A stretch of 64,000 nt of DNA from Octopus sinensis (taxonomy: Eukaryota): the NCBI RefSeq assembly GCF_006345805.1, contig NC_042997.1, positions 201,376,001 through 201,440,000 on the forward strand. The letters run 5' to 3'. The translations under genes and the position numbers were made by a program. The notes below the pieces were generated by a model that was not told the DNA's origin, searched no databases, and saw only the letters and a program-made list of their open reading frames with translations. Each line of letters starts with the position of its first letter. Positions within the stretch are counted from its first letter, which is position 1. Positions 11,500 to 54,509 of this stretch are shown here, piece after piece.

Positions 11500-13499
11500 A
11501 TCATCATCATCATCATCATTGTTTAACGTCCGCTCTCCATGCTAGCATGGGTTGGACGGTTCGACCGGGGTTCTGGGAGCCAGAAGGCTGCACCAGGCTC
11601 CAGTCCAATCTGGCAATGTTTCTACAGCTGGATGCCCTTCCTAACGCCAACCACTCCGTGAGTGTAGTGGGTGCTTTTTACGTGCCACCTGCACAGGTGC
11701 CAGGCGAGGCTGGCAACGGCTATGAGTCGGATAGTGCTTTTTACGTACCACCAGACCAGGGACCCTGGCTGGTTCAATTCGATTTCGAATTCGCTTGCCC
11801 CAACATGTCTTCACAAGCAAAGGGGGTTGGCATGGGTGCCTGTCGTACGGTCGCATTGGAGTATTTTACGTGCCACGGCCACGAGTCGGATAGTGCTTTT
11901 TACGTACCACCAGGCCAGGGATCCTGGCTGGTTCAATTCGGTTTCGATTTCGATTTCGCTTGCCCCAACATGTCTTCGCAAGCATGGGGGGTTGGCATGG
12001 GTGTCTGTCGTCGGATGAGGTTCTATATCGACTTCGCTTGCCTCAACAGGTCTTTGTGTCCAAGGAGGAAAGGCATTCATAAGGGGCTGGGCTCACTTGT
12101 CCTGCCTGTCTTCTCACGTACAGAATATTTCCAAAGGTCTCGGTCGCTAGTCATTTCCTCAGTGAGGCCTAAAGTTCGAAGGTTGTGCTTCACCACCTCG
12201 TCCCAGGTTTTCCTGGGTCTACCTCTTCCACGGGTTCCCTCAACTGCTAGGGATTGGCACTTTCTCACACACCTATCTTCATCCATTCTCGCCACATGAC
12301 CATACCAGTGCAATCGTCTCTCTTGCACACCACACTGATGCTTCTTAGGTACAACATTTCTCTCAAGTGCTAACGCTCTGTCGAGTATGTACACTGACAT
12401 TACACATCCATCGGAGCATACTGGCTTCATTCCTCACGAGCTTACGCATGTCCTCAGCAGTCACGGCCCATGTTTCGCTGCCATGTAGCATGGCTGTTCG
12501 TACACACGCATCATACAGTCTGCCTTTTACTCTGAGCGAGAGGCCTTTAGTCACCAGCAGAGGTAAGAGCTCCCTAAACTTTTCCCAGGCTATTCTTATT
12601 CTAGCAGTTACACTTTCAGCGCACCCACCCCCACTACTGACTTGGTCACCTAGATAACGGAAGCTATCAACTACTTCTAGTTTTTTCCCCCTGGAAAGTG
12701 ACGGAAGTTGTTTTCTGCAGATTTTCGGAGGTTAATGCTCCCGAGCATCTGCCACATACAAAAACTATCTTCCCAGTTACCCTACCTTTGACATTGCTGC
12801 ACCTCTTATGTGTCCATAGCTTACACTGGTACATCTTATAAGAGTTTCTACCTACACCTTTTCTACAGATCGAGCAGGGCCATCTTCCTGAAGACATTTG
12901 TGGATTGTCTACCTTCCTACTTATTAGTACTTTGGTTTTAGCTAGGTTGACTCTAAGGCCTCTTGATTCTAAACCCTCCTCCGTCCACCCTGGAACTTCT
13001 CCTCCAGTTCTGATAGTGACTCAGCAATAAGAGCAAGGTCGTCAGCGTAGAGGAGCTCCCAGGGACAGCCTGTCTTGAATTCCTCCGTAATTGCCTGGAG
13101 TACTATGATAAATAGGAGGGGGCTGAGTACTGAACCCTGGTGGACCCCAACCTCTACTTTGAATTCTTCTGTGTACATGTTGCCAACCCTAACCTTACTT
13201 ACGGCATCTCTGTACATGGCTTGCACAGTCCTCACCAGCCATTCATCTATCCCTAGTTTCCTCATTGACCACCAGATAAGGGATCGGGGGACCCTATCAA
13301 AAGCTTTCTCCATGTCAACGAAAGCCAGGTACAGGGGCTTATCTTTGGCTAGGTATTTCTCCTGCAGCTGCCTTACCAAGAATATAGCATCAGTGGTACT
13401 TTTCCCTGGCACGAACCCAAACAGCATCTCATCTAAACTAACTCTCTCTCTAATTAGTTGGGCTATGACCCTCTCCGTAACCTTCATTACTTGATCCAA
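11500..13499 (-). mobile_element. 5'-truncated RTE-clade LINE (RT to C-terminus, frameshifted)
   Basis: AFVDMEKAFDRV, GVHQGSVLSPLLF, LLYADDLAL RT motifs (12969-13499); LYDACVRTAMLHGSETW; RRLHWYGHVARM and RGRGRPRKTW; (GAT)n tail; inserted in (TA)n. Confidence 0.95.
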
Positions 13500-13683
13500 T
13501 ATATATAATATATAATATGTTTATATATATATATATATATATTATATATGTATGTATATATATATATATATATAATATATATATATATGTATGTATATTA
13601 TATATATATATGTTGTATGTATATATATATATGTATGTATATATATATATATATATATGTATATTATATATATTATATATATG

Positions 13684-16719: not shown

Positions 16720-17412
16720 TTATGCACAATAACGACCCATTTCTCGACCGGATTGTAACTTGTAATGAAAAGTGGATTCATTGAGACAACCATTGATGCT
16801 CAGCTCAGTGGTTGAACACCGATGAAGCTCCACGGTACTTCCTGACGCCAAAGTTGCACCAAGAGAAGGTCATGGTGACTGTTTGGTGGTCTGCGGCCAG
16901 TCTCATCTATCACAGCTTTTTGGATCCAGGCAAAATCATTACGGCGGAGAAGTACTGTCAGCAAATGGATGAAATGCATAAGAAACTCCGACAACAACAG
17001 CCAGCATTGGTCAAAAGAAAAGGACCAATATTTTTCTATGACAATGCTCAGCCGCACATCGCACAACTGACCCTGCAGAAGTTGAATGAATCGGGCTATG
17101 AAACTCTGCCTCATTCGCCATACTCATCAGACCTCTCGCCTACCGACTACCACTTTTTCAAGCATCTCGACAACTTCCTGCGTGAAAAATGCTTCAAACA
17201 CCAAGACGATGCCAAACACGCCTTCAACGATTTCATTGACACCAAAACACAGGATTTTTATGCTACTGGCATAAATAAACTTGTTTTGTGTTAGCAAAAG
17301 TGAATTGATTCTGATGGTGTTTATTTCAATTAATAAAGTTTTGTTTGAGCCGAGATATGTCCATCTAGATTTAAAGGTTAAAAACTGCAAGAACTTTCTT
17401 GACAACCTAATA
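16720..17412 (+). mobile_element. Mariner (Hsmar1/cecropia-like) transposase 3' relic with right TIR
   Basis: IVTCNEKWI, KVMVTVWWS, YDNAQPH and YSSDLSPTDYHFF DDD-domain motifs; TIR ending gaactttcttgacaacctaa plus TA at 17381-17412; in-frame stops upstream. Confidence 0.92.
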
Positions 17413-39429: not shown

Positions 39430-41268
39430 TAATATAATAATAATAAAGCAAGACATGACAGAGTTGGCCAATATTTACAATGGACAATATGTCAGCATTA
39501 TAAAATCGAAACCGCTGACAAATAGTATAAACATCATCCTGAAGCTGTGACTGAGGGAGAAAGTGTGTCAATTCTATGGGACTTTCCCATACATACCGAC
39601 AAAATTATAAAAGCTAATAAACCGGATATTATTATAAAAGATCAGACAAAAAAGATGTGTTTACTAATTGACATGAGTATTCCTTGCGATCACGATATAT
39701 CGGTGAAAGAATTTGACAAGATTAGTAAATATAAAGACTTGCTAATAGAAACTGAAAAAATGTGGCATCTCAAGGCAACTACAGTACCAGTGATTGTAGG
39801 AGCTCTAAGTACGATATAAAAAGGTACTGAAACCTATTTGAAAATGATACCAGGTTTACCATCCCTACAGGAAGTGCAAAAATCGTATTAACTGGAACAG
39901 TTCATGTACTGAGAAGAGCATTATAACTGTGAAAACAACATCCATTCATGAATTTATTTATTAAATTTGAAATAGATATTTTACCTGTGAATTTGCGCGT
40001 GTAATCTGGGAATGCATACAATGAGCTTCTCTGCCCTAGGTGTACGGAAAACACTTGGCAAGAAGCGGAAGAAAATTTGAAGAAAAAAGGAAACTAATAA
40101 TAATAATAATAATGAGTTCAAAATTTGGCATGAAGCCAGCAATTTTAGGGGAAGTGGGTTAATCAATTACATTCTCTCCCCTTCCCCCCACCAGTATTTG
40201 ACTAGGGCTTGATTTTATTGACCCCCAAAAGGACTAAAAGTCTTGCTGAGACTTGAACACAAAGCATAAAAGCTGGAAGAAATGCTGCTAAGCAATTTGT
40301 TTGATGTGCTAAAAATTCAACCAACTCACCACTTCAATGATAATAATAATAATAATAATAATATAATAATAATAAAGCAAGACATGACAGAGTTGGCCAA
40401 TATTTACAATGGACAATATGTCAGCATTATAAAATCGAAACCGCTGACAAATAGTATAAACATCATCCTGAAGCTGTGACTGAGGGAGAAAGTGTGTCAA
40501 TTCTATGGGACTTTCCCATACATACCGACAAAATTATAAAAGCTAATAAACCGGATATTATTATAAAAGATCAGACAAAAAAGATGTGTTTACTAATTGA
40601 CATGAGTATTCCTTGCGATCACGATATATCGGTGAAAGAATTTGACAAGATTAGTAAATATAAAGACTTGCTAATAGAAACTGAAAAAATGTGGCATCTC
40701 AAGGCAACTACAGTACCAGTGATTGTAGGAGCTCTAAGTACGATATAAAAAGGTACTGAAACCTATTTGAAAATGATACCAGGTTTACCATCCCTACAGG
40801 AAGTGCAAAAATCGTATTAACTGGAACAGTTCATGTACTGAGAAGAGCATTATAACTGTGAAAACAACATCCATTCATGAATTTATTTATTAAATTTGAA
40901 ATAGATATTTTACCTGTGAATTTGCGCGTGTAATCTGGGAATGCATACAATGAGCTTCTCTGCCCTAGGTGTACGGAAAACACTTGGCAAGAAGCGGAAG
41001 AAAATTTGAAGAAAAAAGGAAACTAATAATAATAATAATAATGAGTTCAAAATTTGGCACGAAGCCAGCAATTTTAGGGGAAGTGGGTTAATCAATTACA
41101 TTCTCTCCCCTTCCCCCCACCAGTATTTGACTAGGGCTTGATTTTATTGACCCCCAAAAGGACTAAAAGTCTTGCTGAGACTTGAACACAAAGCATAAAA
41201 GCTGGAAGAAATGCTGCTAAGCAATTTGTTTGATGTGCTAAAAATTCAACCAACTCACCACTTCAATG

Positions 41269-41270
<2 letters not shown>
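39430..41270 (+). mobile_element. Tandem duplicate (929-bp period) of a Dong-like 3' end plus a decayed SINE B
   Basis: Identical ORFs at 39547 and 40476 (WDFPIHTD, KPDIII, IDMSIPCD, PVIVGAL). Confidence 0.92.
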
Positions 41271-41302
<32 letters not shown>

Positions 41303-41560
41303 TGATGATGATGGTTTGAAATTTTAATAATAATCCTTTCTGCTATAGGCACAAGGCCTAAAATTTTGGGGAGGGGGGAGAGTGAATTACATCGACCCCA
41401 GTACTCAACTGGTACTTATCTTGTTGATCCCGGAACAATGTAAGGTAAAGTCAACATCAGTAGTGTTTGAACTCAAAAGGTAGAAATGGACAAAATGCCA
41501 CTACTAAACATTTTTCTCCGTGCAATAATGATTCTGCCAGCTCACCGTCTTAATAACAAC

Positions 41561-41592
<32 letters not shown>

Positions 41593-42479
41593 TAATAATA
41601 ATAATAATGATAATAACAATAACAACAACAATAATAATAAAAAATTATAATAATAATGACAATAGTAATAGAAGTAATAATATTAATAACAACAATAACA
41701 ATAGTAATGATAATAACAATAATAATAACAACAGCAATAATAACAATAACAACAATAATAATAATAACAATTATAATAATAATAATAACAATAATAATAA
41801 GAAGAAGAATAACAATTATAATAACAATAATAAGAATAATAGTAACAATAATGATAACAACAATAACAATAATAACAACAACAATAGGCACAGGAGTGGC
41901 TGTGTGGTAAGTAGCTTGTTTACCGACCACATGGTTCCGGGTTCAGTCCCACTGCATGGCATCTTGGGCAAGTGTCTTCTGCTATAGCCCCGGGCCGACC
42001 AATGCCTTGTGAGTGGATTTGGTAGACGGAAACTGAAAGAAACCTGTCGTATATGTGTATATATATATATATGTGTATGTGTGTGTATATGTTTGTGTGT
42101 CTGTGTTTGTCCCCCTAGCATTGCTTGACAACCGATGCTGGTGTGTTTTCGTCCCCGTCACTTAGCGGTTCGGCTAAAGAGACCGATAGAATAAGTACTG
42201 GGCTTACAAAGAATAAGTCCCAGAGTCGATTTGTTCGACTAAAGCCGGTGCTCCAGCATGGCCGCAGTCAAATGACTGTAACAAGTAAAAGAAAGAAAGA
42301 AATAAGAAGAACGATAATAATAACAACAATAATTATAACAACAACAACAATAATAATACTAATAACAATAATAATAATAATAACAGCAATAATAATAACA
42401 ACAATAATAATAATAACAATAATAATAATAACAACAATAATGACAACAATAATAATAATAATTTGGATCATTCTTGAAA

Positions 42480-42895
42480 CGTTCAGTCACCTTTTAATTA
42501 TATTGCTGGGAGGCAGCACTTCCATCTTTTCCCTCAGATTCCTTTTCAAGAATAAGTTGAGGTGGACTTGGTCAAAGAGTAAAGTATCTGTCTTCAGTCC
42601 TTTCAACCAAGTTCACCAGGCAACCTCTTTTGCTAAGGTCAACTGGAAAAGAAACACTGCATGCTCTTCCTAGTCAAAGGAAGGCCGCAGAACAATCTTC
42701 ACAATAGCAAGATCCATCCTACAAGTGACAGCATACGTTTGACACAAACCCTCAAATCAACAATGGACAGAAGCACAGAGAATAGTTCTGTCACTCTGTG
42801 AGCATCTCAAGCAAGCCTCAATGACAGCACTTCCCTGTAGAGTTTATCTCAACCTAGCAATGCTCCTTGGCAGCACGGCCAGGCCAGGGATTTCT
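42480..42895 (-). mobile_element. Decayed Tx1/L1-clade ORF2 C-terminal relic
   Basis: Minus-strand LAWPCCQGAL..DKLY...CLRCSQSDRTIL...HC resembles the zf-RVT region. Confidence 0.45.
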
Positions 42896-42964
42896 GAAAT
42901 AACAACAGCAACAACAACAACAATTATTAGAATTTGGGAATGGATTTTTTGTTGTAAATGAGAC

Positions 42965-43525
42965 ATTTAAGAAACACACAAAAACCATTAGATTCACTTC
43001 AATATTTAAATTTAATTTGCCAAAATATTTTCATCACTTTGAGACTGCGACCTGTCCACTGAAAAAATTCCGTGCTGCATCTCGGAATTTTGCCAGTGAA
43101 CAGGTCACGGTTTCAAAGGGATGAAAATATTTTGGCAAATTAAATTTAAATGTTGAAGTGAATCTAACAGTACAGGACATAAAAAAAAACCGTTGAAAAC
43201 AATGAGAAACGAAAACAAAAACAAAAACATAGAAATTAACGTTTTTTTCGAACAACGAATAAAACAAAGAGAGAAGCGAGACATGCAACATAAAGAATAT
43301 TCCCCTTCATCAGTTGTCCTTGCAGCACTGAATTTTGTCAGTGAACAGGTAGCGGTCGCAGAATGACGAAAATATTTTGACAAATTAAATTCAAATGTTG
43401 AAGTGAATCTAACAGTTTTTGTGTGTTTCTTAAATGGCTTATAAACACCTTCCACACTGCAATTGTTTTCGTTCCAGCACACGATCTCAGATCAGGTCAC
43501 TTGCTATGCAAGTACATCTCCGTAA
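42965..43525. mobile_element. PLE-like remnant with an 85-bp-arm imperfect palindrome (42988-43167) and a third direct copy (43325-43435)
   Basis: ttagattcacttcaa.atttaaatttaatttg.caaaatattttc repeated in inverted and direct orientation; CTGATGAAGGGG on minus at about 43302-43313. Confidence 0.55.
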
Positions 43526-44261
43526 ATGAGACATTATTTCCTACAAAAATATTGTGTAAATAATTAGCAGTTAAATGGTTTTATTACAGCAGGTAAAATG
43601 CTTGTCATTGTTGTATAAAATGAATTTTGAAATAAGTTTTATTTACTATATTCAGACATGTAAAGTACTAAATTTTATATTGCAAAATTTTTCTTTCAGA
43701 TTTACAGTTATGTAGAAAATATGTCATCGTCTCAGAAGTTGACTGTTGAATTATTTAACAAAGCATTTTAAAACCAAATCATAAAGTTTCCAGGTGACTT
43801 TATTGATTCTTCAGCAAAGTTTTAACATGAAAACATGATATCTCATTTGTGACTAACGTTAATACTTTACACTTTGAAGAAACTTTTCATGGAAATGAGT
43901 TTTGTTCTATGATACAACATTTAATGAATAATTGAAGACGATTATTCCTATGACACCACAGATTCCTTGCTCCAAGACGAGGTGTAATTGACCTACTGTG
44001 TGCAAAGCAGACAAAAACATGATTATGTGCAATTTTTTTTATATATTTTGTTATTTTATATTTTATATCCTGCATTTTATGAGAAATTGTATTGTTGGAA
44101 ATTGTATTGCTTTCCAATGGACCAATCATTGATGCGTGGTGTTCACAGTGGTGATAGTGACAAGGGAGTGTCTGTACAACTTGGGTGGAGTAAATACTAC
44201 AAAGCATCTTTGTCCAAATGCACAGCTATACCAGTTTCCTTACTGATATGTTACGGGAGAA

Positions 44262-45305
44262 AGGTGGCGAGCCGGCAGAAACGTTAGCACGCTGGGTAAA
44301 ATGTTTAGCGGTATTTCGTCTGCGTTACGTTGTGAGTTCAAATTCCGCTGAGGTCGACTTTGCCTTTCATCCTTTCGTGGTCGATAAATTAAGTACCAGT
44401 TACGCACTGGGGTCGATGTAATCGACTTAATACTTATGTCTGTCCTTGTTTGTCCCCTTTGTGTTTAGCCCCTTGTGGGTAATAAAGAAATAGGTATTTC
44501 TTCTGTCTTTATGTTCTGAGTTCAAATTATGCTGAGGTCAACTTTGCCTTTCATCTTTCGGGGTTGATAAATTAAGTACCAGTTGCGTACTGGGGTTGAT
44601 CTAATCGCCTGGCTCCCTCCTTAAATTTTCAGGCTTTGTGCCTAGAGTAGTAAAGAATATTTTGGTAACTCCAAGGCAGCAAGCTGGCAGAAACATTAGC
44701 ACGCCGGGCGAAATGCTTAGCGGTATTTCGCCTGTCGCTACGTTCTGATTTCTAATTCCGCAGAGGTCGACTTTGCCTGTCATCCTTTCGGAGTCGATTA
44801 AATAAGTACCAGTTATGCACTGGGGTCGATATAATCGACTTAATCCGTTTGTCTGTCTTTGTTTGTCCTCTCTGTATTTAGCCCCTTGTGGGTAGTAAAG
44901 AAATAGGTATTTCGCCTGTCTTTATGTTCTGAGTTCAAATTCGCTGAGGTCAACTTTGCCTTTCATCCTTTCAGGGTCGATAAATTAAGTACCAGTTGCA
45001 TACTGGCATCAATCTAATCGACTGGCTCCCTCCCCAAAAATTTTGGACTTTGTGCCTAGCGTAGAAAAGGATATTTTGGTAACTCCAAGGCAGCAAGTCG
45101 GCAGAAACATTAGTACGCCGGGCAAAATGCTTAGCAGTATTTCACCTGTCTTTACATTGAGTTCAAATTCTACCGAGGTCAACTTTGCCTTTCATCGTTT
45201 CGGGGTCGATAAATTAAGTACCAGTTGCATACTGGGATCAATCTAATCGCCTGGGTCCCTCCCCCAAAATTTTGAGTCTTGTGCCTAGAGTAGAAAAGAT
45301 ATTTT
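44262..45305 (+). mobile_element. Tandem array of SINE B units (other copies 56490-56725, 61436-61670)
   Basis: Three heads (ggcagaaac.ttag.acgc.ggg) and five cores (gactttgcctttcatcctttcggggtcgataaattaagtacc). Confidence 0.9.
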
Positions 45306-46174
45306 GGGGGAGAGTGGAGGTTGGAGGTGGGCAGAGAAGAGTAGAGAAAAGAAAGGGGTCCAATTTCAAAAGGATACTTGGTGGGGCGAGCTCCAAAAGG
45401 GGTCTCAGGGAGTAGCATCCTTACATTCTTAAGCTAGTTTTCCACCACATTTCTTAAAAATCCTGGTAGAGGCCTTGGTCTTGGGACCACTTATATCTAG
45501 AAACCGAGGTTGGGGGTAAGCAATGCTATGCTCCCCATAGAAAATCCAGCCCCCAAAAAAGCCACATGATAGCAAAGGAGAATGGGCACCAGCCAGCCCA
45601 AAGATTGGGATGGGTTGCATCTGCCTACCTCAGTTGCTATGGCATTGAGATAGATCCAGCTACCCCCATTAACGGGTACAAAACCTGGATTTAAAACACT
45701 GGATGACGATGATGATGATGATGATGGTGATGTAATCCTGGTGGTTACCGTTTTCCCTCTTAAATCAGTTTCATATGCCAGCTGACCGCAACGAATGTTG
45801 GTGACGTCTGAGTTAGCAATAAGCTGTTAGACTTCAGTGATTTTTCTCACTTGGTAAATCCTATTGTCCTACTACTAAATACTACTACCCTGTTATTCTT
45901 TCATTCTTTTTACTTTTGACTGTGGCCATGCTGGAGCAATGCCTTTAGTTGAACAAATCTACCCCCTGGGACTTATTCTTTGTAAGCCTAGTCTATTGGT
46001 CGCTGTGGCCAAGCCACTAGGTTACGGGGATGTAAACACACCAGCATCGATTGTCAAGTGATGGTGGGGGGACAAACACAGGCACACAAATATATACATA
46101 CATATATATACATATACATTATATACATATATATATATATATAATATATATATATATTATATATATATTATATA

Positions 46175-46285
<111 letters not shown>

Positions 46286-46359
46286 ATATTAGGGAATAAA
46301 TCCAAATTTACAGGGAAAAAATCAGATTTAGGATTAAATCCAATTTTATAGTAAAATAT

Positions 46360-46678
46360 TATATAATATTAATTTGAGACAAAACCACTATTTTGCAAAA
46401 CAAACAAGGAAAGACTTAATCAAAACATAAAAATTTTTAATATAAAGAAATAAACGCCACTACAATCGTTTCATGTCTTCAATGACATTCGTCAGGTGGA
46501 TTTTCGATCTCCTAATCTGTTTTAGGAGATCGAAAATCCACCTGACGAATGTCATTGAAGACATGAAACGATTGTAGTGGCGGTTTATTTCTTTATATTA
46601 AAAATTTTTATGTTTTGATTAAGTCTTTCCTTGTTTGTTTTGCAAAATAGTGGTTTTGTCTCGAATTAATATTATATA
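46360..46678. repeat. 319-bp near-perfect palindrome (156/157-bp arms, 6-nt loop)
   Basis: 46360-46515 vs 46522-46678: one substitution and one 1-nt indel. Confidence 0.97.
46538..46580 (+). ncRNA. Minimal type I hammerhead ribozyme motif (mirror copy on minus strand 46457-46499)
   Basis: ccac-CTGACGA-ATGTC-attgaa-GACAT-GAAA-C-gatt-G-TA-gtgg: intact core, stems I/II/III, GUA cleavage triplet. Confidence 0.85.
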
Positions 46679-46704
46679 TATATATATATATACATATATA
46701 CATA

Positions 46705-47381
46705 TATGGTTATCCGTAATAATGAAGGGTGAAATTAATTAATTTGGAAAAATTATCAATTACACCAAGTAGTCTTCGGCATGTAAAAGCCTCATTCGAG
46801 GAAAATTTAAGTAATACTAAGCAATAAGGGTTTAGCAACGAGTTGCCTTACCACATACCGAATTTAGAATAGCAGTCAAAGGGTTATAGCTATTTCTTCT
46901 ACTAAAAAGGGAGATCTCAGTAAAAACAGCATTTGGAAGGCAGACACAAACAGGTAAGAGAGAATGAATTGACTGCAATCTATCATACATTTTTTTAGTT
47001 ATCCACGGACGTACGTTTCGAAATCAAGTTTTAAGGAAAGCATAAGAATTAAATATTAAATATTAAATAATAAATAATTCTATCTTACCGAAACTTCTTT
47101 TCTCTTCAGCGTAGAATACTATAATCATAAATGATTATATATTGAATTTTGAGATACAGAAGGCACCAACTCCACTCAGTATCAGAGCGAGCTAGAATCC
47201 GCAACTGGTATCACCGAATTCAATTGTGAATGAAACGATTGTGTCAACAGCCCCTTCCCACCCGCGTGTAGCCAAAACAAGATGCTGTGGTCATCTACTG
47301 AGATAAAATATGGTTATCCGGCAAGGCAACTCGTTATCCGGTAAGGCAACTCGTTGCTAAACCCTTATTGCTTAGTATTAC
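46705..47381 (-). mobile_element. PLE-type pseudo-LTR element with an inverted terminal segment
   Basis: Direct repeat tatggttatccg at about 46705 and 47309; perfect 42-bp inverted repeat 46811-46852 / 47340-47381; contains an HHR; inserted in (TA)n. Confidence 0.7.
47002..47115 (-). ncRNA. Type I hammerhead ribozyme motif with a long stem II
   Basis: Minus: tctacg-CTGAAGA-GAAA..AAGTTT-(AT-rich insert)-AAACTT..TTTC-GAAA-C-GTAC-G-TC-cgtgga; GUC triplet, palindromic stem III. Confidence 0.8.
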
Positions 47382-49022
47382 ATATATACATATATATATA
47401 CATATATACATATATATATACATATATACATATACATATAAATACATATTTCGTTTTTGGATTTGGTTTGCAAGATTCTTTATACGAGTTCGTATGTTGA
47501 AGCATATTCTTTTGTGTCTGGAGAGAGTCATTTTTTTTTTGTGCCTTATAATGTAACACACTCACTGGTGAAATTTCCACTTATTTCATATTTTTATTCT
47601 CCCAAAATTTTCATTGCGTCTTGCAACCTTTTCAATAGACTTGGCTCTTTTCAATTGTACTGTGAGGTGGATGTAATTGTCCTTGGGGGTAATTGTCCTG
47701 ATACAGTTAAACTGGGCCATATCCGGTCTAAATATTCTACGTGTTTTATGCTCAAACTGACAAAGACTAAATCCAGCCTCTCACACCTACCGTATAATGT
47801 CATGCTAAAATATATATTATCATGGCTTTGAAGTCTAGAAGCAGCAAGATAATACATCATTAATTCAAATCAATTTGAATAAATAAACATCAGGTTTGAC
47901 ACGATAATCGAAAAGCTAAATGGTTAAACATTGACTGTATTTTGCATTGAAATGTTGATGTCAACAACTGGCAGAGTTCATAGATATGCCATCTTGGTAG
48001 GTAAAAGTACAGCTGTGACTTATGAGGAAGAAGTAAACCGTAAATATTAATGATTAAATATATAAAAAAAAACTAAGTGATTTCCAATTCATTCTAAAGA
48101 TTCTAATTTGATGTATGGAATTCAATATTCAATGTTCAATATGTTCGATATATAGTTCAATAAACAGGTTTTGATTTTGGACAGTTATAATCTTCTAGTG
48201 TTTTTAAACCTACATATACATACACACATAGATATGTACATGCATGTGTTTGTGTGTACATACATATAACGTATGGAATTCATGCATACACACATTTAAA
48301 TATATGTATGGAAGACATAAAGCCAGTAGGTTTAAGAGATGAATATATATTTATTTAACCGTGTGACTTCCATAGAATTATGGTCATTTTGCAAGCTTCT
48401 TCATGTCGTATGAATTTCAGTATTCAAGAAATTATGCGTACATGTTTGCTAGAATATGTATGCTTAGTATTATACAATACAGTTGTATACAGCTTCATAT
48501 TCACATGTTAATGCAAATATAGAAGGCTAGCTCGTAAGATCTCCAGGATAGCATGGTTACATCAACAATTCAACTCTGAATATACACACAAAATTTCCTC
48601 TTAATATACACAATGTATGGAAGGCTGGAACTGGGCAATCCTCCATTTGAAATGCTAGGCCTTTCAACTCATTCGTCATATAAAAAAGTTCATTTTTGTA
48701 GATAAGACATATCATCATCTTCCTCATCATCTAACGTCCGCTTTCCATGCAAGCATGGGTTGGACGATTTGACTGAGGACTGGCAAACCAGATGGCTGCA
48801 CCAGGCTCCAATCTGATCTGGCAGAGTTTCCACAGCTGGATGCCCTTCCTAATGCCAACCACTCTGAGAGTGTAGAGGGTGCTTTTACGTGCCACCGGCA
48901 TGAAAGCCAGTCAGGTGGTACTGGCGACGGCCATGCTCAAATGGTGTTTTTTACGTGCCACTGGCACTGGAGCCTGTTCAGCAACACTGGCAACGACCCC
49001 ACTCACATGTTTTTTTCACGTG

Positions 49023-49072
49023 CATGGAGAGATATCCCTATTCCTTGGCTGGAATAGGGATATCTCTCCATG
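49023..49072. repeat. Perfect 22-bp hairpin with a 6-nt loop
   Basis: catggagagatatccctattcc-ttggct-ggaatagggatatctctccatg. Confidence 0.95.
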
Positions 49073-49755
49073 ACACATCTATATGTAGCTTGTCCATCAT
49101 TGTGAGTAACCTAATTAAGCACCCCAGTGGGATAATCTCTGGTTGCCTTTGAAGCCTGTACTGTCCTTTCTCTCTCTTTCATACACATGTTCCTTGAGAG
49201 ATGGTTGCTTCTCCTTCAGGTTTTCTTGATTTTAAATTATCTGTATCTTTGCTTTTTTTCTAGGTAGGGATGTTTGCTCTATGTAAACCTATTTCTACCT
49301 TCAGGAAGAGGTGGACCATAATAGTGCAGCTTCCACTCTTTGATCTGGCCAGCATGGGAGGCCATACAAGGAGCTGGTGCTATGAGGTCTTTCATACAGG
49401 GTTTGCATTAGAGACAGACCTCATAGTTCTCAGGGTCAGTGAGGGACAAAAGCCACCATATGGCAACCAAGACTAAACCTTGTGGTGGACATATATATAT
49501 ATATATATATATAATATTAGGGAGTAAAACTCCAAGCTTAAAGAGAAAAATTCAATTTAGCATTAAATCAAATTTCACAATATAAATATATAATATATAT
49601 AAATTAGAGAAAAACCACTATTATGCAATTCAAACAATGATAGACATAAACCAAATCATAAAGAAAAAATAAAATATATTATAAAACATATAACTAGATC
49701 ACAAAAATTACAAAAAAATGAATAAACAATCTAATTATATATATATATATATATA

Positions 49756-50254
49756 CTAGCAGTATCGCCCGGCGTTGCTCGGGTTTGTAAGGGAAATAAC
49801 TATATAAGCATTTTTAGAGAGTTATAGCCAAAAAATAGGGAAAAAATGCATTAAAAATGGAAAAAAAATTAAGGTAAATTTCTTTTTAAATCGTTGACAC
49901 ATCGTAGATATTTTTAGAGAGTTACTTCCCTTATATAATAGCGAAAAAAATACATTAAAAATGGAAAAAAAATTAAGGTAAATTTCTTTTTAAATCGTTG
50001 ACACATCGTAGATATTTTTAGAGAGTTACTTCCCTTATATAATAGCGAAAAAAATGCATTAAAATGGAAAAATATGATGGTAAATTTTTTAAAATCGTAG
50101 ACTCATCGTAGACGCGCGCTAATACCCAGAAGGGCTCGATATGACTCACGACTATAAGATACCCGGTTTTGGTTACACTGCACCGCAAAATGTGGGAGTA
50201 GTTAGGAATCTAAATCGTAGGAGACAGACACACACAACCACTCTTATATAAAGA
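49756..50254 (-). mobile_element. Non-autonomous Helitron with an internal tandem repeat of about 104 bp
   Basis: Minus strand 5' TC, 3' hairpin CCCGAGCAACGCCGGG then CTAG, inserted between A and T, no TSD. Confidence 0.85.
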
Positions 50255-50363
50255 TATAAGTCACGTAGTTATATACACATACTTTGTTATATACACATTC
50301 TTAAAAGAAAATGTTTTTTTTGAATACAACATTTATAAAGAATAAAATATTTTTTGGTTTTTC

Positions 50364-51030
50364 TTAACCCTTTCGTTACAATATTTCTGACCAAAATACA
50401 ACCCCTTATGTGTTTCAATTAATTTCTAACGTAATCATAAATTTAGTCTGGTTTCATTAACAACAATAACTTTTTTATTTATCAATATATTAACGTGAAT
50501 TTTGGAAGATAATTAATGAAATGTCCTCAACCAATTCTATACTATAATTTTTGTCACAAAGTGACTCTAATTGCAGGTAGATACAGGTAAATTCAACAAA
50601 ATATAAAATTATTAAAATTTTGTTCAAACATCGCTATAGAAAATGGGTTATTAGCTAATATTCAATTGGGTATACAACAAATTTACGATAGAATTTGTTA
50701 TTCTGGGTAACCTTCTGATACCCATAATAATATTTATGGCAAAATAGGCCTTAATTTCATTTAAGGTTGTGGGAAATAACAAACTATCCTTTCTTTCGTT
50801 TTGTTTACGTTTAGCGTAACGTTTCGTTTCTGCCGTAATGATTTCAAATGGGCTCATTCGAAAAAGTAAATAGAAATAGTCTAAGGCTTTACTCTTCTGG
50901 AAAGTCTGTGGCTTGGTGCAGTTTCTTCAGAAAAATCACCGAAAGAAACAGTTTTTAAATTTTCACTCCATTCAGGTACCAATTCGTTTTCTTTATCGCT
51001 GTCGGATCACTGTTTTCACTTTAATAGCTG
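50364..51030 (-). mobile_element. piggyBac transposase fragment with one TIR
   Basis: TTAA-CCCTTTCGTTAC terminus at 50364; EIITAETKRYA...PTTLNEIKAYFAINIIMGIRRLPRI resembles the piggyBac/PGBD4 N-terminal core. Confidence 0.75.
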
Positions 51031-51376
51031 CAAACTTGTAAAGACAAAGGAGGAGAAGGGTGATAGCGTCAGTGAAACAATTCGCTCCCTTTGTGTGTGT
51101 GTGCATTTGCATGTGGTGTAAACGACATTAAGAAAAACATTTGACATACACACCAGAATGTGAGTTTTCTGTAAATTTTGCTTAATTGGAGTTTAAATTT
51201 AAAAACTGGACCTGGCATGACCCGATGCATTCTACTCTTAAAATGCTAGGTAAATTGTAATTGAAGAAATCCTATATTGTAGATTTCTATAAGTTACAAA
51301 GGGAGGCAGATAAAATCTGCCTTTTATAATAAGAGATGATCCATATTCTTTGTAATTGTTTGAAATTTACACTTCT

Positions 51377-51417
<41 letters not shown>

Positions 51418-51567
51418 TATATATATATTTATGGTATGTTTCGTTAGGAACGTAGCGGAGTACAGCTTAAAGCCTATCCACCCCCAGAATTACCCAATAC
51501 TATCTGGAAGCATCATTATATATTTTCAAATTTACATTTGAGCATTTGTTGGAGACAACACTTGAAT

Positions 51568-51673
51568 ATCTCCTGAGGAAGCACAACAAGATTTCACTAT
51601 GCAAACAAGCATTTGCATAATTAAATACCTGTAGTTTTGGAGAACTATATTGTGTGGAAACATTTGTGGTGAT
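51568..51673 (+). ncRNA. Degenerate hammerhead-like motif with a long stem II (probably inactive)
   Basis: atctc-CTGAGGA-A-GCACAA...TTGTGT-G-GAAAC-attt-GTG-gtgat; G at the cleavage position. Confidence 0.45.
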
Positions 51674-51743
51674 TAAAAAATAACTGTCCAACCATACTCC
51701 TTCTTGTTGACTCCAATTTAATCAATATATATATATATATATA

Positions 51744-51780
<37 letters not shown>

Positions 51781-51793
51781 CGGTGTCTGCTAC

Positions 51794-51839
51794 TCTAGGC
51801 CGATGAAGGACAATGATCCTGAAACACGGTGTCCCTAGA
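51794..51839 (+). ncRNA. Type I hammerhead ribozyme motif (U4C core variant)
   Basis: tctagg-CCGATGA-AGGA-caatga-TCCT-GAAA-CA-cgg-TG-TC-cctaga: 6-bp stem I, 4-bp stem II, 3-bp stem III, GUC triplet. Confidence 0.8.
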
Positions 51840-52005
51840 TGCAGTTCCAGCAGTTGGGGGTGTTTGTCTCCCCTTCGTATGTGTATATAAAGACACAGGA
51901 TAAAATGTGTCGAAGCTGTCAGGAGGCGTTCGATGCCTCCTAGGGCTATATAACGGTGGTGTACCCCCTACTGTCACGTTCTTGTTAGATTGACAGTATA
52001 CAACC

Positions 52006-52063
<58 letters not shown>

Positions 52064-52067
<4 letters not shown>

Positions 52068-52342
52068 CAAAAAGGAGAACCTAATTCAAAGACTACAGAT
52101 CCAATAATCCATCACTGGAATGGTGGAAATCTGTAAAACTTTCCAGAAGTTTATCTTTCAAATATATATGAGCATGTCTATATGTGCAACTATATGCATG
52201 AGAATACATACATAAGACGTACAAATCTGTACATACATACATAAAAAAATTACACAGTTGTTGATGTTGAAATTCCAATGAAGGAGCCTTGGATCTAGGT
52301 TAGAAACCGGTTCTTTCTCTATTGGCAAGAAATCTTGAAATA
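52064..52342 (+). mobile_element. 3' end of RLE LINE family B (other copy 54362-54982, minus)
   Basis: LIQRLQIQ..ITG..ICKTFQKF* C-terminus; 3' UTR stem-loop ccaatgaaggagcc...gg.tctttctctattgg; ends in CATA repeats. Confidence 0.75.
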
Positions 52343-52623
52343 AACTGAATAATGACATACATGTGTACTTTCATACCAGATTCCCATATCCTTCTTCGTA
52401 TGCGGAATGAAAACTTCTTATGACGGCACCAAATTGTCACATTATCTCTGAATTTTTAGGCATGAATAACACAAGAAAAACCAGTCAAATATAAATATAG
52501 AGATATTTCGTCTGACATAAACATTTCTGTGCATTTTGCTTCTATTATATTTCTCACAACAATTCACAATGATAAAAAAAATATTGTATTGAAATTTTTC
52601 ATAAAATATATATATACCTATAT

Positions 52624-52668
<45 letters not shown>

Positions 52669-52737
52669 AATATAGATATAGATATAGATAAATATATACA
52701 CACATACATATATATATATGTACACACACACACACAC

Positions 52738-52777
<40 letters not shown>

Positions 52778-52965
52778 TAGGGAGAATTCACAAAAAAAAA
52801 CAAAAGACAAAGATAGGTGGTTGTAGACAACAAACAGATGTATTAGTATAACGCCAGGGAAGTGAAAAAGTCTTTAAAGTTTCGAGCCTACGCTCTTCCA
52901 CAGAAAGGAACACAGAAAGAAACAAGGAGAGAAAATAAAGAATGTGTAGTGGCTAGTGATCTATT
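52778..52965 (-). mobile_element. Short PLE-like repeat with an HHR-derived motif (second copy 58720-58892, plus)
   Basis: cttt-CTGTGGA-A-GAGC-gtag-GCTC-GAAAC-TTT-aaag at 52872-52907 (minus); cttt-TTGTTGA-A-GAGC-atag-GCTC-GAAAC-ATA-aaag at 58763-58798. Confidence 0.55.
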
Positions 52966-53470
52966 ATGGTGGTGTGTGGTATATATATATAATGTATGTA
53001 TGTATGTATATGTATGTATACATATATGTCGTCGTCAACATCATCATCATCATCATCTTTAACATCCGTTTTCCATGCTGGCATGGGTTGGACGGTTCGA
53101 CTGGGGTCTGGGAAGCCAGGAGGCTGCACCAGGCCCCAATCTGATCAGGCAGTGTTTCTACAGCTGGATACCCTTCATAATGCCAACCACTCTGAGAGTA
53201 TAGTGGGTGCTTTTTATGTGCCATCAGCACAAGGGGCCAGAGGAGCTGGCATTGACCACAATCGGATGACCTCTTAAAAATATGGCATTTCCCCCTCCAT
53301 ATTTTTAAGACGTCATGGGTCAACAAGTTTTTTGGGATCTGACAATATGCCTCAAAGCTAACCCCTTTATGAATGGGAAACCTAAGCTAATCCCATAAAC
53401 TGGCCTTCCCCAATTTTAATATATACTGCTCCACATTTTAGAGTATGCTTCTATTTATGTTTTTTACAAA

Positions 53471-53523
<53 letters not shown>

Positions 53524-53530
53524 TTAGTTT

Positions 53531-53584
<54 letters not shown>

Positions 53585-54509
53585 TATATATAAAAAATAC
53601 AAAATGGGACAAGAACGCAAAAAACACAAAGAGACGACACAAAGAACGGACGAGTCATTCGAAGCCTCTAATCTTCAGTCAGGAACCGGATCGTCCTAGC
53701 AAATTTCGGCTGATTAATCCTGATATCGCTCAGATCCGGCCAGCCCCAAGGAAAAACTAAGCTGCGAGCATTAGATTTCTTGGAAAAGGGATCGAATGTA
53801 TACAAGGACAGAAAAATAGACGATGCCACACGAATATAAATACAAAAAAACAAGAATGGTAATAATGGGACAAAAACAGCGGGTGTTATACGACTTTAGA
53901 CAATTGAACTTATCTTAGCGGGCATGTGCGTGTGTGTGTGTGCGTAAAACAACTCTGTTATGTCTGCTAGTACTATGACTCCACCACTACCATTCAGCTC
54001 CCATGGTTAATAACCATTCCTTAATTTCTACATTACTAGTAAGAAACAAAAGACAAAGGCCATTATTAAAACAGTTACATAAATATTGTAACCCAGTAGT
54101 AATCAGAAGAAGACCAATGACCAGCACCATTTGTAAGAAAAACATGTAAAGTTCCTAAAAATTGATATCATGAAAAGGTAATTGAATTTGTTTCAATTTA
54201 TTTTCCCTTCTCAAGTGACATAACTAAATTACCTTCAACGATTGAAACCAGTCACATATTTTGAGGAATATGTAAATATTTTCTTTTATTCATGATAATT
54301 TCTCGAAAGAGTTTCTTTTTGTTTTTATGTGTATACGTATACATGTATCTATATATGTATGTATGTTATCATTCAGGTTTATTTTAAGATTTCTCGCCAA
54401 TAGAGAAAGAGCCGGTTTCTAACCTAGATCCAAGGCTCCTTCATTGGAATTTCAACATGAACAACAGGGTATTTTTGTTTGTATGTATGTATGTATATTT
54501 GTATGTATG

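Follow-up and report, generated by a model that had tools for sequence, protein, structure and literature searches.

Inverted pLTRs, tails and central palindromes have been described for Penelope-like elements (PLEs) (PMC8557442), as have dimeric minimal hammerheads and opposite-strand pairs of them, lying 100-700 bp apart, with the end of an intron by helix I in D. virilis (PMC4209133, PMC6765202). Inverted, tailed, hammerhead-bearing PLE stubs are already known. The choice between antisense self-priming and an unspliced sense template is left undecided in the accessible part of PMC3846280, whilst PMC2377424 notes splicing of most transcripts and holds copies that lack an intron to be at a disadvantage. 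The PLE protein of Poseidon of Anolis (PAc) cut and extended both strands in vitro, starting at two internal sites that bound the tail, with no difference in start site seen between the strands; inverted insertions are not derived from this in the text available (PMC11167929). Recent Penelope families are reported among the repeats of Octopus vulgaris (PMC13282606, the accessible text of which does not use the word ribozyme), and the available parts of PMC12910113 and of a bioRxiv preprint (10.64898/2026.07.22.740005) held nothing further on these PLE and hammerhead points. Our search of the literature, which covered openly available papers, found no report of spliced PLE stubs, of a strict rule pairing long with short arms, or of copy ends at a hammerhead cut.

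The window, a 64,000-nucleotide stretch of the Octopus sinensis genome, had in an initial annotation been credited with a hammerhead on both strands of a near-perfect 319-bp palindrome, and the arms and both motifs were found where claimed (Table 1). The arms, 46360-46515 (156 nt) and 46522-46678 (157 nt), are one substitution and one 1-nt indel apart, and the RNA hairpin of the palindrome has a predicted energy of -248 kcal/mol (z = -40 against 100 shuffles). The extent of the insert had to be revised: the palindrome does span 46360-46678, but the whole insert runs from about 46262 to 46678 and is asymmetric, with around 80-100 nt more on the left, where the arm carries a tail (46279-46359) and a TAA run; the right arm is untailed. 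At the tailed end the ATT run has seven units, compared with three in ORF-bearing copies. The 6-nt 'loop' of the palindrome consists of additional exon-1 sequence of the left arm, which is joined to the right arm by way of a 3-nt TTA overlap. The insert is almost certainly real, an ordinary-looking PLE stub of known kind, and this single locus is probably inert.

Table 1. Features of the insert, its flanks and a neighbouring arm (positions in the window)
Feature	Position	Strand	Remarks
(TA)n target microsatellite, left flank	46090..46261	.	sequence; copies sit in (TA)n
Tail of long arm, about 80 nt (to 46279), with expanded ATT run	46262..46359	-	putative distal priming site at its outer end
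Exon-2 part of long arm (element 5' UTR)	46360..46508	-	
Type I hammerhead motif, left copy	46457..46499	-	predicted cut after A46461
Exon-1 remnant of long arm (nt 12-27)	46509..46524	-	spliced directly to exon 2
TTA microhomology, 3 nt, at the head-to-head arm joint	46522..46524	.	L001, overlap 3
Exon-1 remnant of short arm (nt 21-27)	46522..46528	+	splice junction TTAGGAG/ATCG at 46528/46529
Short arm, exon-2 part	46529..46678	+	putative proximal priming site (AATATTATATA) at its end
Type I hammerhead motif, right copy	46538..46580	+	predicted cut after A46576; self-complementary stem III ACGAUUGU
(TA)n target microsatellite, right flank	46679..46706	.	sequence
Tailed solo arm of second PLE-like family	49514..49736	-	start lies about 13-17 nt downstream of the hammerhead cut predicted for its family

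The family to which the insert belongs (the window family) resembles the Penelopes of Adineta vaga and other EN+ PLE inverted pLTRs in its head-to-head repeats and central palindrome, and in its optional tail at one end, its 5' intron over the promoter region and its AT-rich targets, as far as the available text of PMC3846280 and PMC8557442 goes. It differs from the inverted insertions described there in having a tail of about 80 nt, as opposed to 30-40, in the nearly strict pairing of long with short arms, in the stub being without coding sequence, and in that most of its arms lack the intron whose retention those papers treat as an EN+ PLE hallmark.

No host exon was found in the window, a Pfam search of 112 window frames giving only transposase and RT fragments. 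These are fragments of an RT, of a mariner-type transposase and of a piggyBac/IS4-type transposase, at 12972-13520 (-), 16797-17291 (+) and 50654-50926 (-) respectively. A second palindrome, at 42988-43167, has 90-nt arms that are 89% complementary and no spacer. Beside the stub, at 46707-47390 and likewise in (TA)n, lies a unit of a family of about 606 bp with a 60-nt inverted end, the copies of which are near-identical and form head-to-tail arrays with frequent head-to-head flips. The CUGANGA-GAAA core was not found in L201, a locus of this family, and the family resembles a PLE-type element that is non-autonomous, very young and lacking a canonical hammerhead.

The hammerhead of the window family, CCAC-CTGACGA-ATGTC/GACAT-GAAA-C-GATT-G-TA-GTGG, has its cores at 46542 (+) and 46495 (-), and combines the type I features of CUGANGA, GAAA, NUH and three helices conserved in relatives. 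It is like the minimal PLE hammerheads in being of type I with a short palindromic helix III and a short helix I, and unlike them, in the accessible text of PMC4209133 and PMC6765202, in that the base of stem II is closed by A-U instead of the usual G-C. A search of the 2.72 Gb genome found 267 exact copies of the 43-nt core and none of the reversed pattern used as a control, hence the motif is not a product of chance; a further 4104 related matches have an N7 other than C, again with a control count of zero. Across relatives loop 2 varies, and GUC/GAC and a self-complementary stem III are mostly kept, with ACATTTGT as the exception; only such stem features are independent evidence of conservation, the core being fixed by the search pattern itself. 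The Rfam check suggested for the motif, covering 40000-54000 with a cut-off of E<=5, gave only sub-threshold hairpin miRNA models and no hammerhead, hence the ribozyme call rests on motif, conservation and folding. Stem III, described as one transition from a palindrome, is not a damaged one, as ACGAUUGU self-pairs fully with G-U wobbles; sister subfamilies carry ACAATTGT and ACGATCGT. The variants ACGATTGT, ACAATTGT and ACGATCGT self-pair whilst ACATTTGT does so poorly.

That the hammerhead needs a dimer agrees with the folding predictions: the monomer fold has a probability of 0.005, and the cofold minimum of two copies is a double hammerhead (-21.8 kcal/mol, versus -16.6 for two monomers). 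The ribozyme of the window is accordingly predicted to work as a dimer only, via its self-complementary stem III. In a read-through RNA of the window the duplex is about 76 kcal/mol better than a forced hammerhead fold, leaving a ribozyme-versus-duplex switch, as had been suggested, unsupported as a design; the palindrome is better read as a by-product of insertion.

Parent copies of the window family have TCACTTC, which resembles the initiator consensus, and after it exon 1 (27 nt), a GT-AG intron and the hammerhead; two AT-rich end points with 80 nt between them come next, and then an ORF. The ORF, which is single and downstream of the repeat, has RT and C-terminal GIY-YIG motifs, and three loci (L042, L093 and L101) link it to the exact motif of the window. 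L042 comprises the end of a GIY-YIG ORF, a long spacer, a tailed hammerhead repeat and an inverted untailed copy, whereas in L101 and L093 the repeat continues into the ATG and then RT with YRDD; the distal, or tail, end in L093 is 57 nt upstream of this ATG. A direct Pfam search of the AT-biased ORF detected neither an RT nor a GIY-YIG domain, no match was found among PDB sequences, and a homologue search among longer proteins found none. The homologues that are available, which include an Octopus protein, carry RVT_1 or HTH_animal, with GIY-YIG in the atlas clusters, and the motifs are common to homologues.

By its motifs the parent matches the Hydra clade, as that clade is described in section 11 of PMC8557442. 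The shared features are DKT in place of DKG (QSDKTRNLY), a CxCX5C linker (CTCRDKFKC), CxxC and CxH around E and N (CYLC..E..LLN..KCRH), the hammerhead, a (TA)n insertion bias and a single ORF; the GIY-YIG core is without CCHH, having at most one cysteine pair between VVYK and YIG. The differences from that description are KWK for RWK (the element reads RIKWK, homologues RWK or RWR/RWA), a unit of around 5.5-6 kb as against less than 3 kb, an asparagine-rich insert between thumb and endonuclease, as in A. vaga, and a 5' intron of 1.1-1.6 kb. Partial tandems together with inverted, 5'-truncated copies having a one-sided tail, and a hammerhead in the pLTR adjoining the 5' intron, are further features shared with EN+ PLEs. 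The family may already be catalogued. In L042:4403-5719 (-) and L101:5140-5400 (-) the insert between the RT thumb and the endonuclease is Asn/Lys-rich and in frame; it is absent from nine aligned homologues, although Penelopes of A. vaga are reported to have one. Internal repeats make up the intron and the 3' spacer in L042:1100-4400, L096 and L102, among which some copies hold two or three consecutive exon-1/donor modules.

The arms diverge by 0.7% from the column majority (228 of 32308 letters, assembly errors included). Of the suggestion that this is a very young inverted PLE or retrozyme-type insertion, the young inverted PLE stands and the retrozyme-type tandem does not: the window family consists of head-to-head pairs and solo arms, with tandem duplicates in only three of 90 pair loci. 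Non-LTR retrozymes are similarly non-coding, PLE-derived and equipped with a type I hammerhead, but are head-to-tail tandems in the available text of bioRxiv 10.64898/2026.07.22.740005, whereas stubs like that of the window are head-to-head pairs that arise afresh with each insertion. A MITE or other DNA transposon was also rejected, as the ends are asymmetric and the centres variable.

Long copies read tcACTTCATAAATTAAAACAGATTAGGAG followed by gtatgt, then the intron, then ttttag and ATCGAAAATCCACC; in seven copies this GT..AG intron is 1093-1588 nt long. Both arms in the window instead read TTAGGAG/ATCG and are intron-less. Genome-wide there are 246 exact junctions, 214 of them spliced, including that of the window, and 32, in long copies, retaining the intron; the patterns were of 30 and 33 letters, one matching spliced junctions only, so that the unspliced were counted separately. 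A sister subfamily has a GTAAGT donor 4 nt further upstream, and in 12 of its 15 close pairs the stubs are joined exactly at that donor and the acceptor, two of the remainder fitting an AGAAG/GTATGT donor and one being without an unspliced counterpart among the copies found. Since allele 146G occurs in both spliced and unspliced copies (ten and three arms respectively), splicing probably took place more than once. The intron-less arms are a departure from the retention hallmark rather than grounds for excluding the family from EN+ PLEs. Some of the stubs could derive from a master copy that had itself lost the intron: two loci, L125 and L126, have intron-less arms that keep promoter-side upstream sequence, implying that read-through RNA can also be spliced before copying.

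The 5' ends of the arms form a wall, with 125 of 180 starting at +1 to +13 relative to the initiator-like A and 36 at +1 itself; only two of the 33 arms reaching +1 in the sample examined continue far upstream. The start site, splicing and cleavage are all read here from DNA copies of the RNA. The base before +1 is a G in 24 of 42 spliced arms and in none of ten unspliced arms, in a search that covered G and not T. Such a G is a signature of the cap; the partner arm can supply it at most loci, L013, L019 and L115 being those with no such source, and a cap-derived G on the template mRNA is only suggestive.

The 3' ends of the arms fall into two groups: of the 180 arms, 67 stop exactly at +177 and 80 at +258. 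These sites lie 137 and 57 nt before the ATG and each have a TA or TAT overlap with the target. Among 90 pairs, counted only where the arms lay within 90 bp, 77 were composed of a long and a short arm, two of two short and one of two long arms, and ten were unclassifiable, hence 77 of the 80 classifiable pairs have one tailed and one untailed arm. The loci examined, about 240 out of related places that run into the thousands, were chosen partly by patterns; in those not selected by the short-arm query the pairing is long with short in 53 of 56, and in the sister subfamily in all 15 close pairs. L024, being the same place as L006, and the second copies in L032, L033 and L157 were dropped before counting. 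Each of these last three loci holds a tandem duplicate of the complete inverted unit, spaced 0.4-1.1 kb from the first, either a real duplication or an effect of assembly. ATT runs beyond three units were seen at the tailed end of 11 of 106 arms (L001, L029 and L023 among them) and reach nine units, possibly because a telomerase-related RT slipped or because the microsatellite grew later.

In 20 of the 77 pairs it is the short arm, and in 25 the long arm, that extends further in the 5' direction by more than 5 nt. Short arms found as solos extend to +1 and lie within clean (TA)n, and L085 and L089 have an ORF on the untailed arm and none on the tailed, the reverse of L042. The pairs are joined by overlaps in 47 cases, bluntly in nine and through filler in 34, the filler in L004, L018 and L109 being templated by the sense strand. 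Substitutions common to both arms number 24, compared with 1.9 (maximum nine) in 2000 shuffled pairings, and fit fold-back or later conversion between arms equally well; 114 are private to one arm. Position 103, at a homopolymer edge, is discordant between the arms in nine of 13 pairs, which is probably noise.

These observations suggest that the palindrome is probably a dead-end insertion of a young PLE with Hydra-clade motifs, formed by twin priming on a spliced sense mRNA with joining by microhomology. In twin priming of L1, both target ends prime cDNA, resulting in an inversion joined by microhomology; here the two cDNAs would overlap in what they copy, so that the product is an inverted duplication, and each would begin at a fixed internal site. 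The element endonuclease would open both strands of a (TA)n target, with priming then at the distal site from one target end and at the proximal site from the other, probably on the same RNA or inside a single RNP dimer. Both cDNAs would extend to near the 5' end of the mRNA, and their 3' ends would be joined through microhomology, with occasional fold-back or templated filler. Full-length copies would come from read-through into the downstream repeat, on RNA that is mostly unspliced, which may be why introns look retained. That both arms are templated by RNA is supported by the short arm reaching further in 20 of 77 pairs, the solo short arms that reach +1, and the contrast of L085 and L089 with L042. 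This reading extends the two-strand, two-site result in vitro: PAc likewise has two internal start sites bounding its tail and an AT-rich target, although its sites are inside the ORF and those of the window family in the 5' UTR with TA/TAT microhomology to the target, as far as can be judged from the accessible text of PMC11167929.

The main rival, which we consider unlikely, is fold-back with later deletion, in which a single cDNA, primed at the tail on the spliced mRNA, folds back at its 3' end and uses itself as template up to the proximal AT-rich site, where it is captured by the second target end, the varied centres being later one-sided deletions from the hairpin tip. The long-and-short rule and the shared variants are explained in this manner, as are the more frequent arrival of long arms at +1 to +3 (32, versus 18 short; 12 versus 3 in the least biased subset) and the commonest junction, TTTATG/ACTTC, which resembles a fold-back of the long cDNA; the templated filler shows that short fold-backs occur. 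However, deletions, some of several kilobases, are needed for the 20 pairs with the further-reaching short arm and for L085 and L089, in which the untailed arm is the longer, and solo untailed arms reach +1 in clean (TA)n. For intron retention and for PLE palindromes of the head-to-head type, PMC3846280 proposes that an antisense transcript primes itself; this fits the geometry, the central palindromes and the minority of 32 in 246 junctions that keep the intron, yet most arms are spliced at GT-AG sites of the sense strand in at least two subfamilies and stop at the sense initiator, and those of the second family described below stop at the sense-strand hammerhead cut; this makes it highly unlikely.

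A further possibility is a non-autonomous unit able to propagate itself (SINE-, retrozyme- or MITE-like), which would have arisen a single time from a spliced copy and then multiplied as an entire palindrome, possibly one with a ribozyme/duplex switch. This would suit the high copy number, the tandem duplicates of the entire unit and the existence of intron-less copies with upstream sequence. Nevertheless it is improbable, for the junctions vary by locus, each subfamily matches its own intron-bearing parent and donor, alleles cross between spliced and unspliced classes, the ends are asymmetric, and the duplex would bury both hammerheads. Palindromes are also a known artefact of long reads, and among the pieces listed from contigs of four sequencing runs compared with 46270-46900, none spans the centre by 31 letters on both sides. 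A chimeric read or assembly fold-back is nonetheless very unlikely, given the 90 pairs with different centres and varied junctions, the outer ends at two fixed sites with a tail on one side only, the arm 5' ends that stop at a biological landmark, and the substitution and indel between the arms. Twin priming on a spliced mRNA is the reading preferred here.

Whether the template was intact when copied can be gauged from the position of the arm ends relative to the hammerhead. In the window family 145 of 180 arms span the entire motif and one starts within 2 nt of the cut, suggesting that its RNA was mostly uncut by the hammerhead; this agrees with PAc in vitro, where uncut RNA is the main substrate. 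The sequence at 49515-49735, noted previously as a related copy lacking the hammerhead, is alike to about 60-80% in AT-rich pieces, but belongs to a separate family having a hammerhead of its own (GAC-CTGAGGA, a long stem II, GAAA-CGTACG-TA-GTC), the GAC/GTC stem being AAC/GTT in some copies. This second family also occurs as long and short pairs, and repeated ACTTATT units are present at its 5' junctions. In 40 loci taken in list order from 143 matches, 18 of the 44 arms covering +9 start at +1 to +9 after the predicted cut and none at -8 to 0, alignment ends being fuzzy in the AT-rich tract; by the same measure the window family has four of 161. The upstream half of the hammerhead is missing, as judged by eye, in around 40 of the first 100 matches. 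Hence the copy 5' ends of the second family pile up at the predicted cut, where the PAc RNA-seq in the available text of PMC11167929 has no ends, and 49514-49736 is likely to be a copy of a 3' cleavage product. A pause at a U run, or a second start site, is a possible alternative source of these ends; a block at stem II would stop copies upstream of the cut, where starts are rare. A search for copy ends at the cut in the ACGATCGT subfamily recovered just two arms, both from the source locus.

The head-to-head origin, the sense of the template, intron retention and cutting in vivo are left open in the accessible text of PMC3846280, PMC8557442, PMC4209133 and PMC11167929, and the stubs offer countable genomic evidence on all four questions. 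We tentatively propose, at somewhat less than even confidence, that the thousands of stubs in the genome are a fossil record of insertion in which a dimeric RT-endonuclease primes both target ends on a single sense mRNA, spliced and capped, at two fixed positions, with introns retained only via unspliced read-through and about 40% of templates cut by the hammerhead in the sister family whose stem III is a perfect ACGUACGU. The window and sister families provide natural strong and weak hammerheads, and a young ORF-bearing family that is usable in the existing in vitro assay. If true, the cutting of those templates would count as evidence from the genome for in vivo cleavage by a PLE hammerhead, at a frequency set by the strength of stem III, a link that rests on two families.
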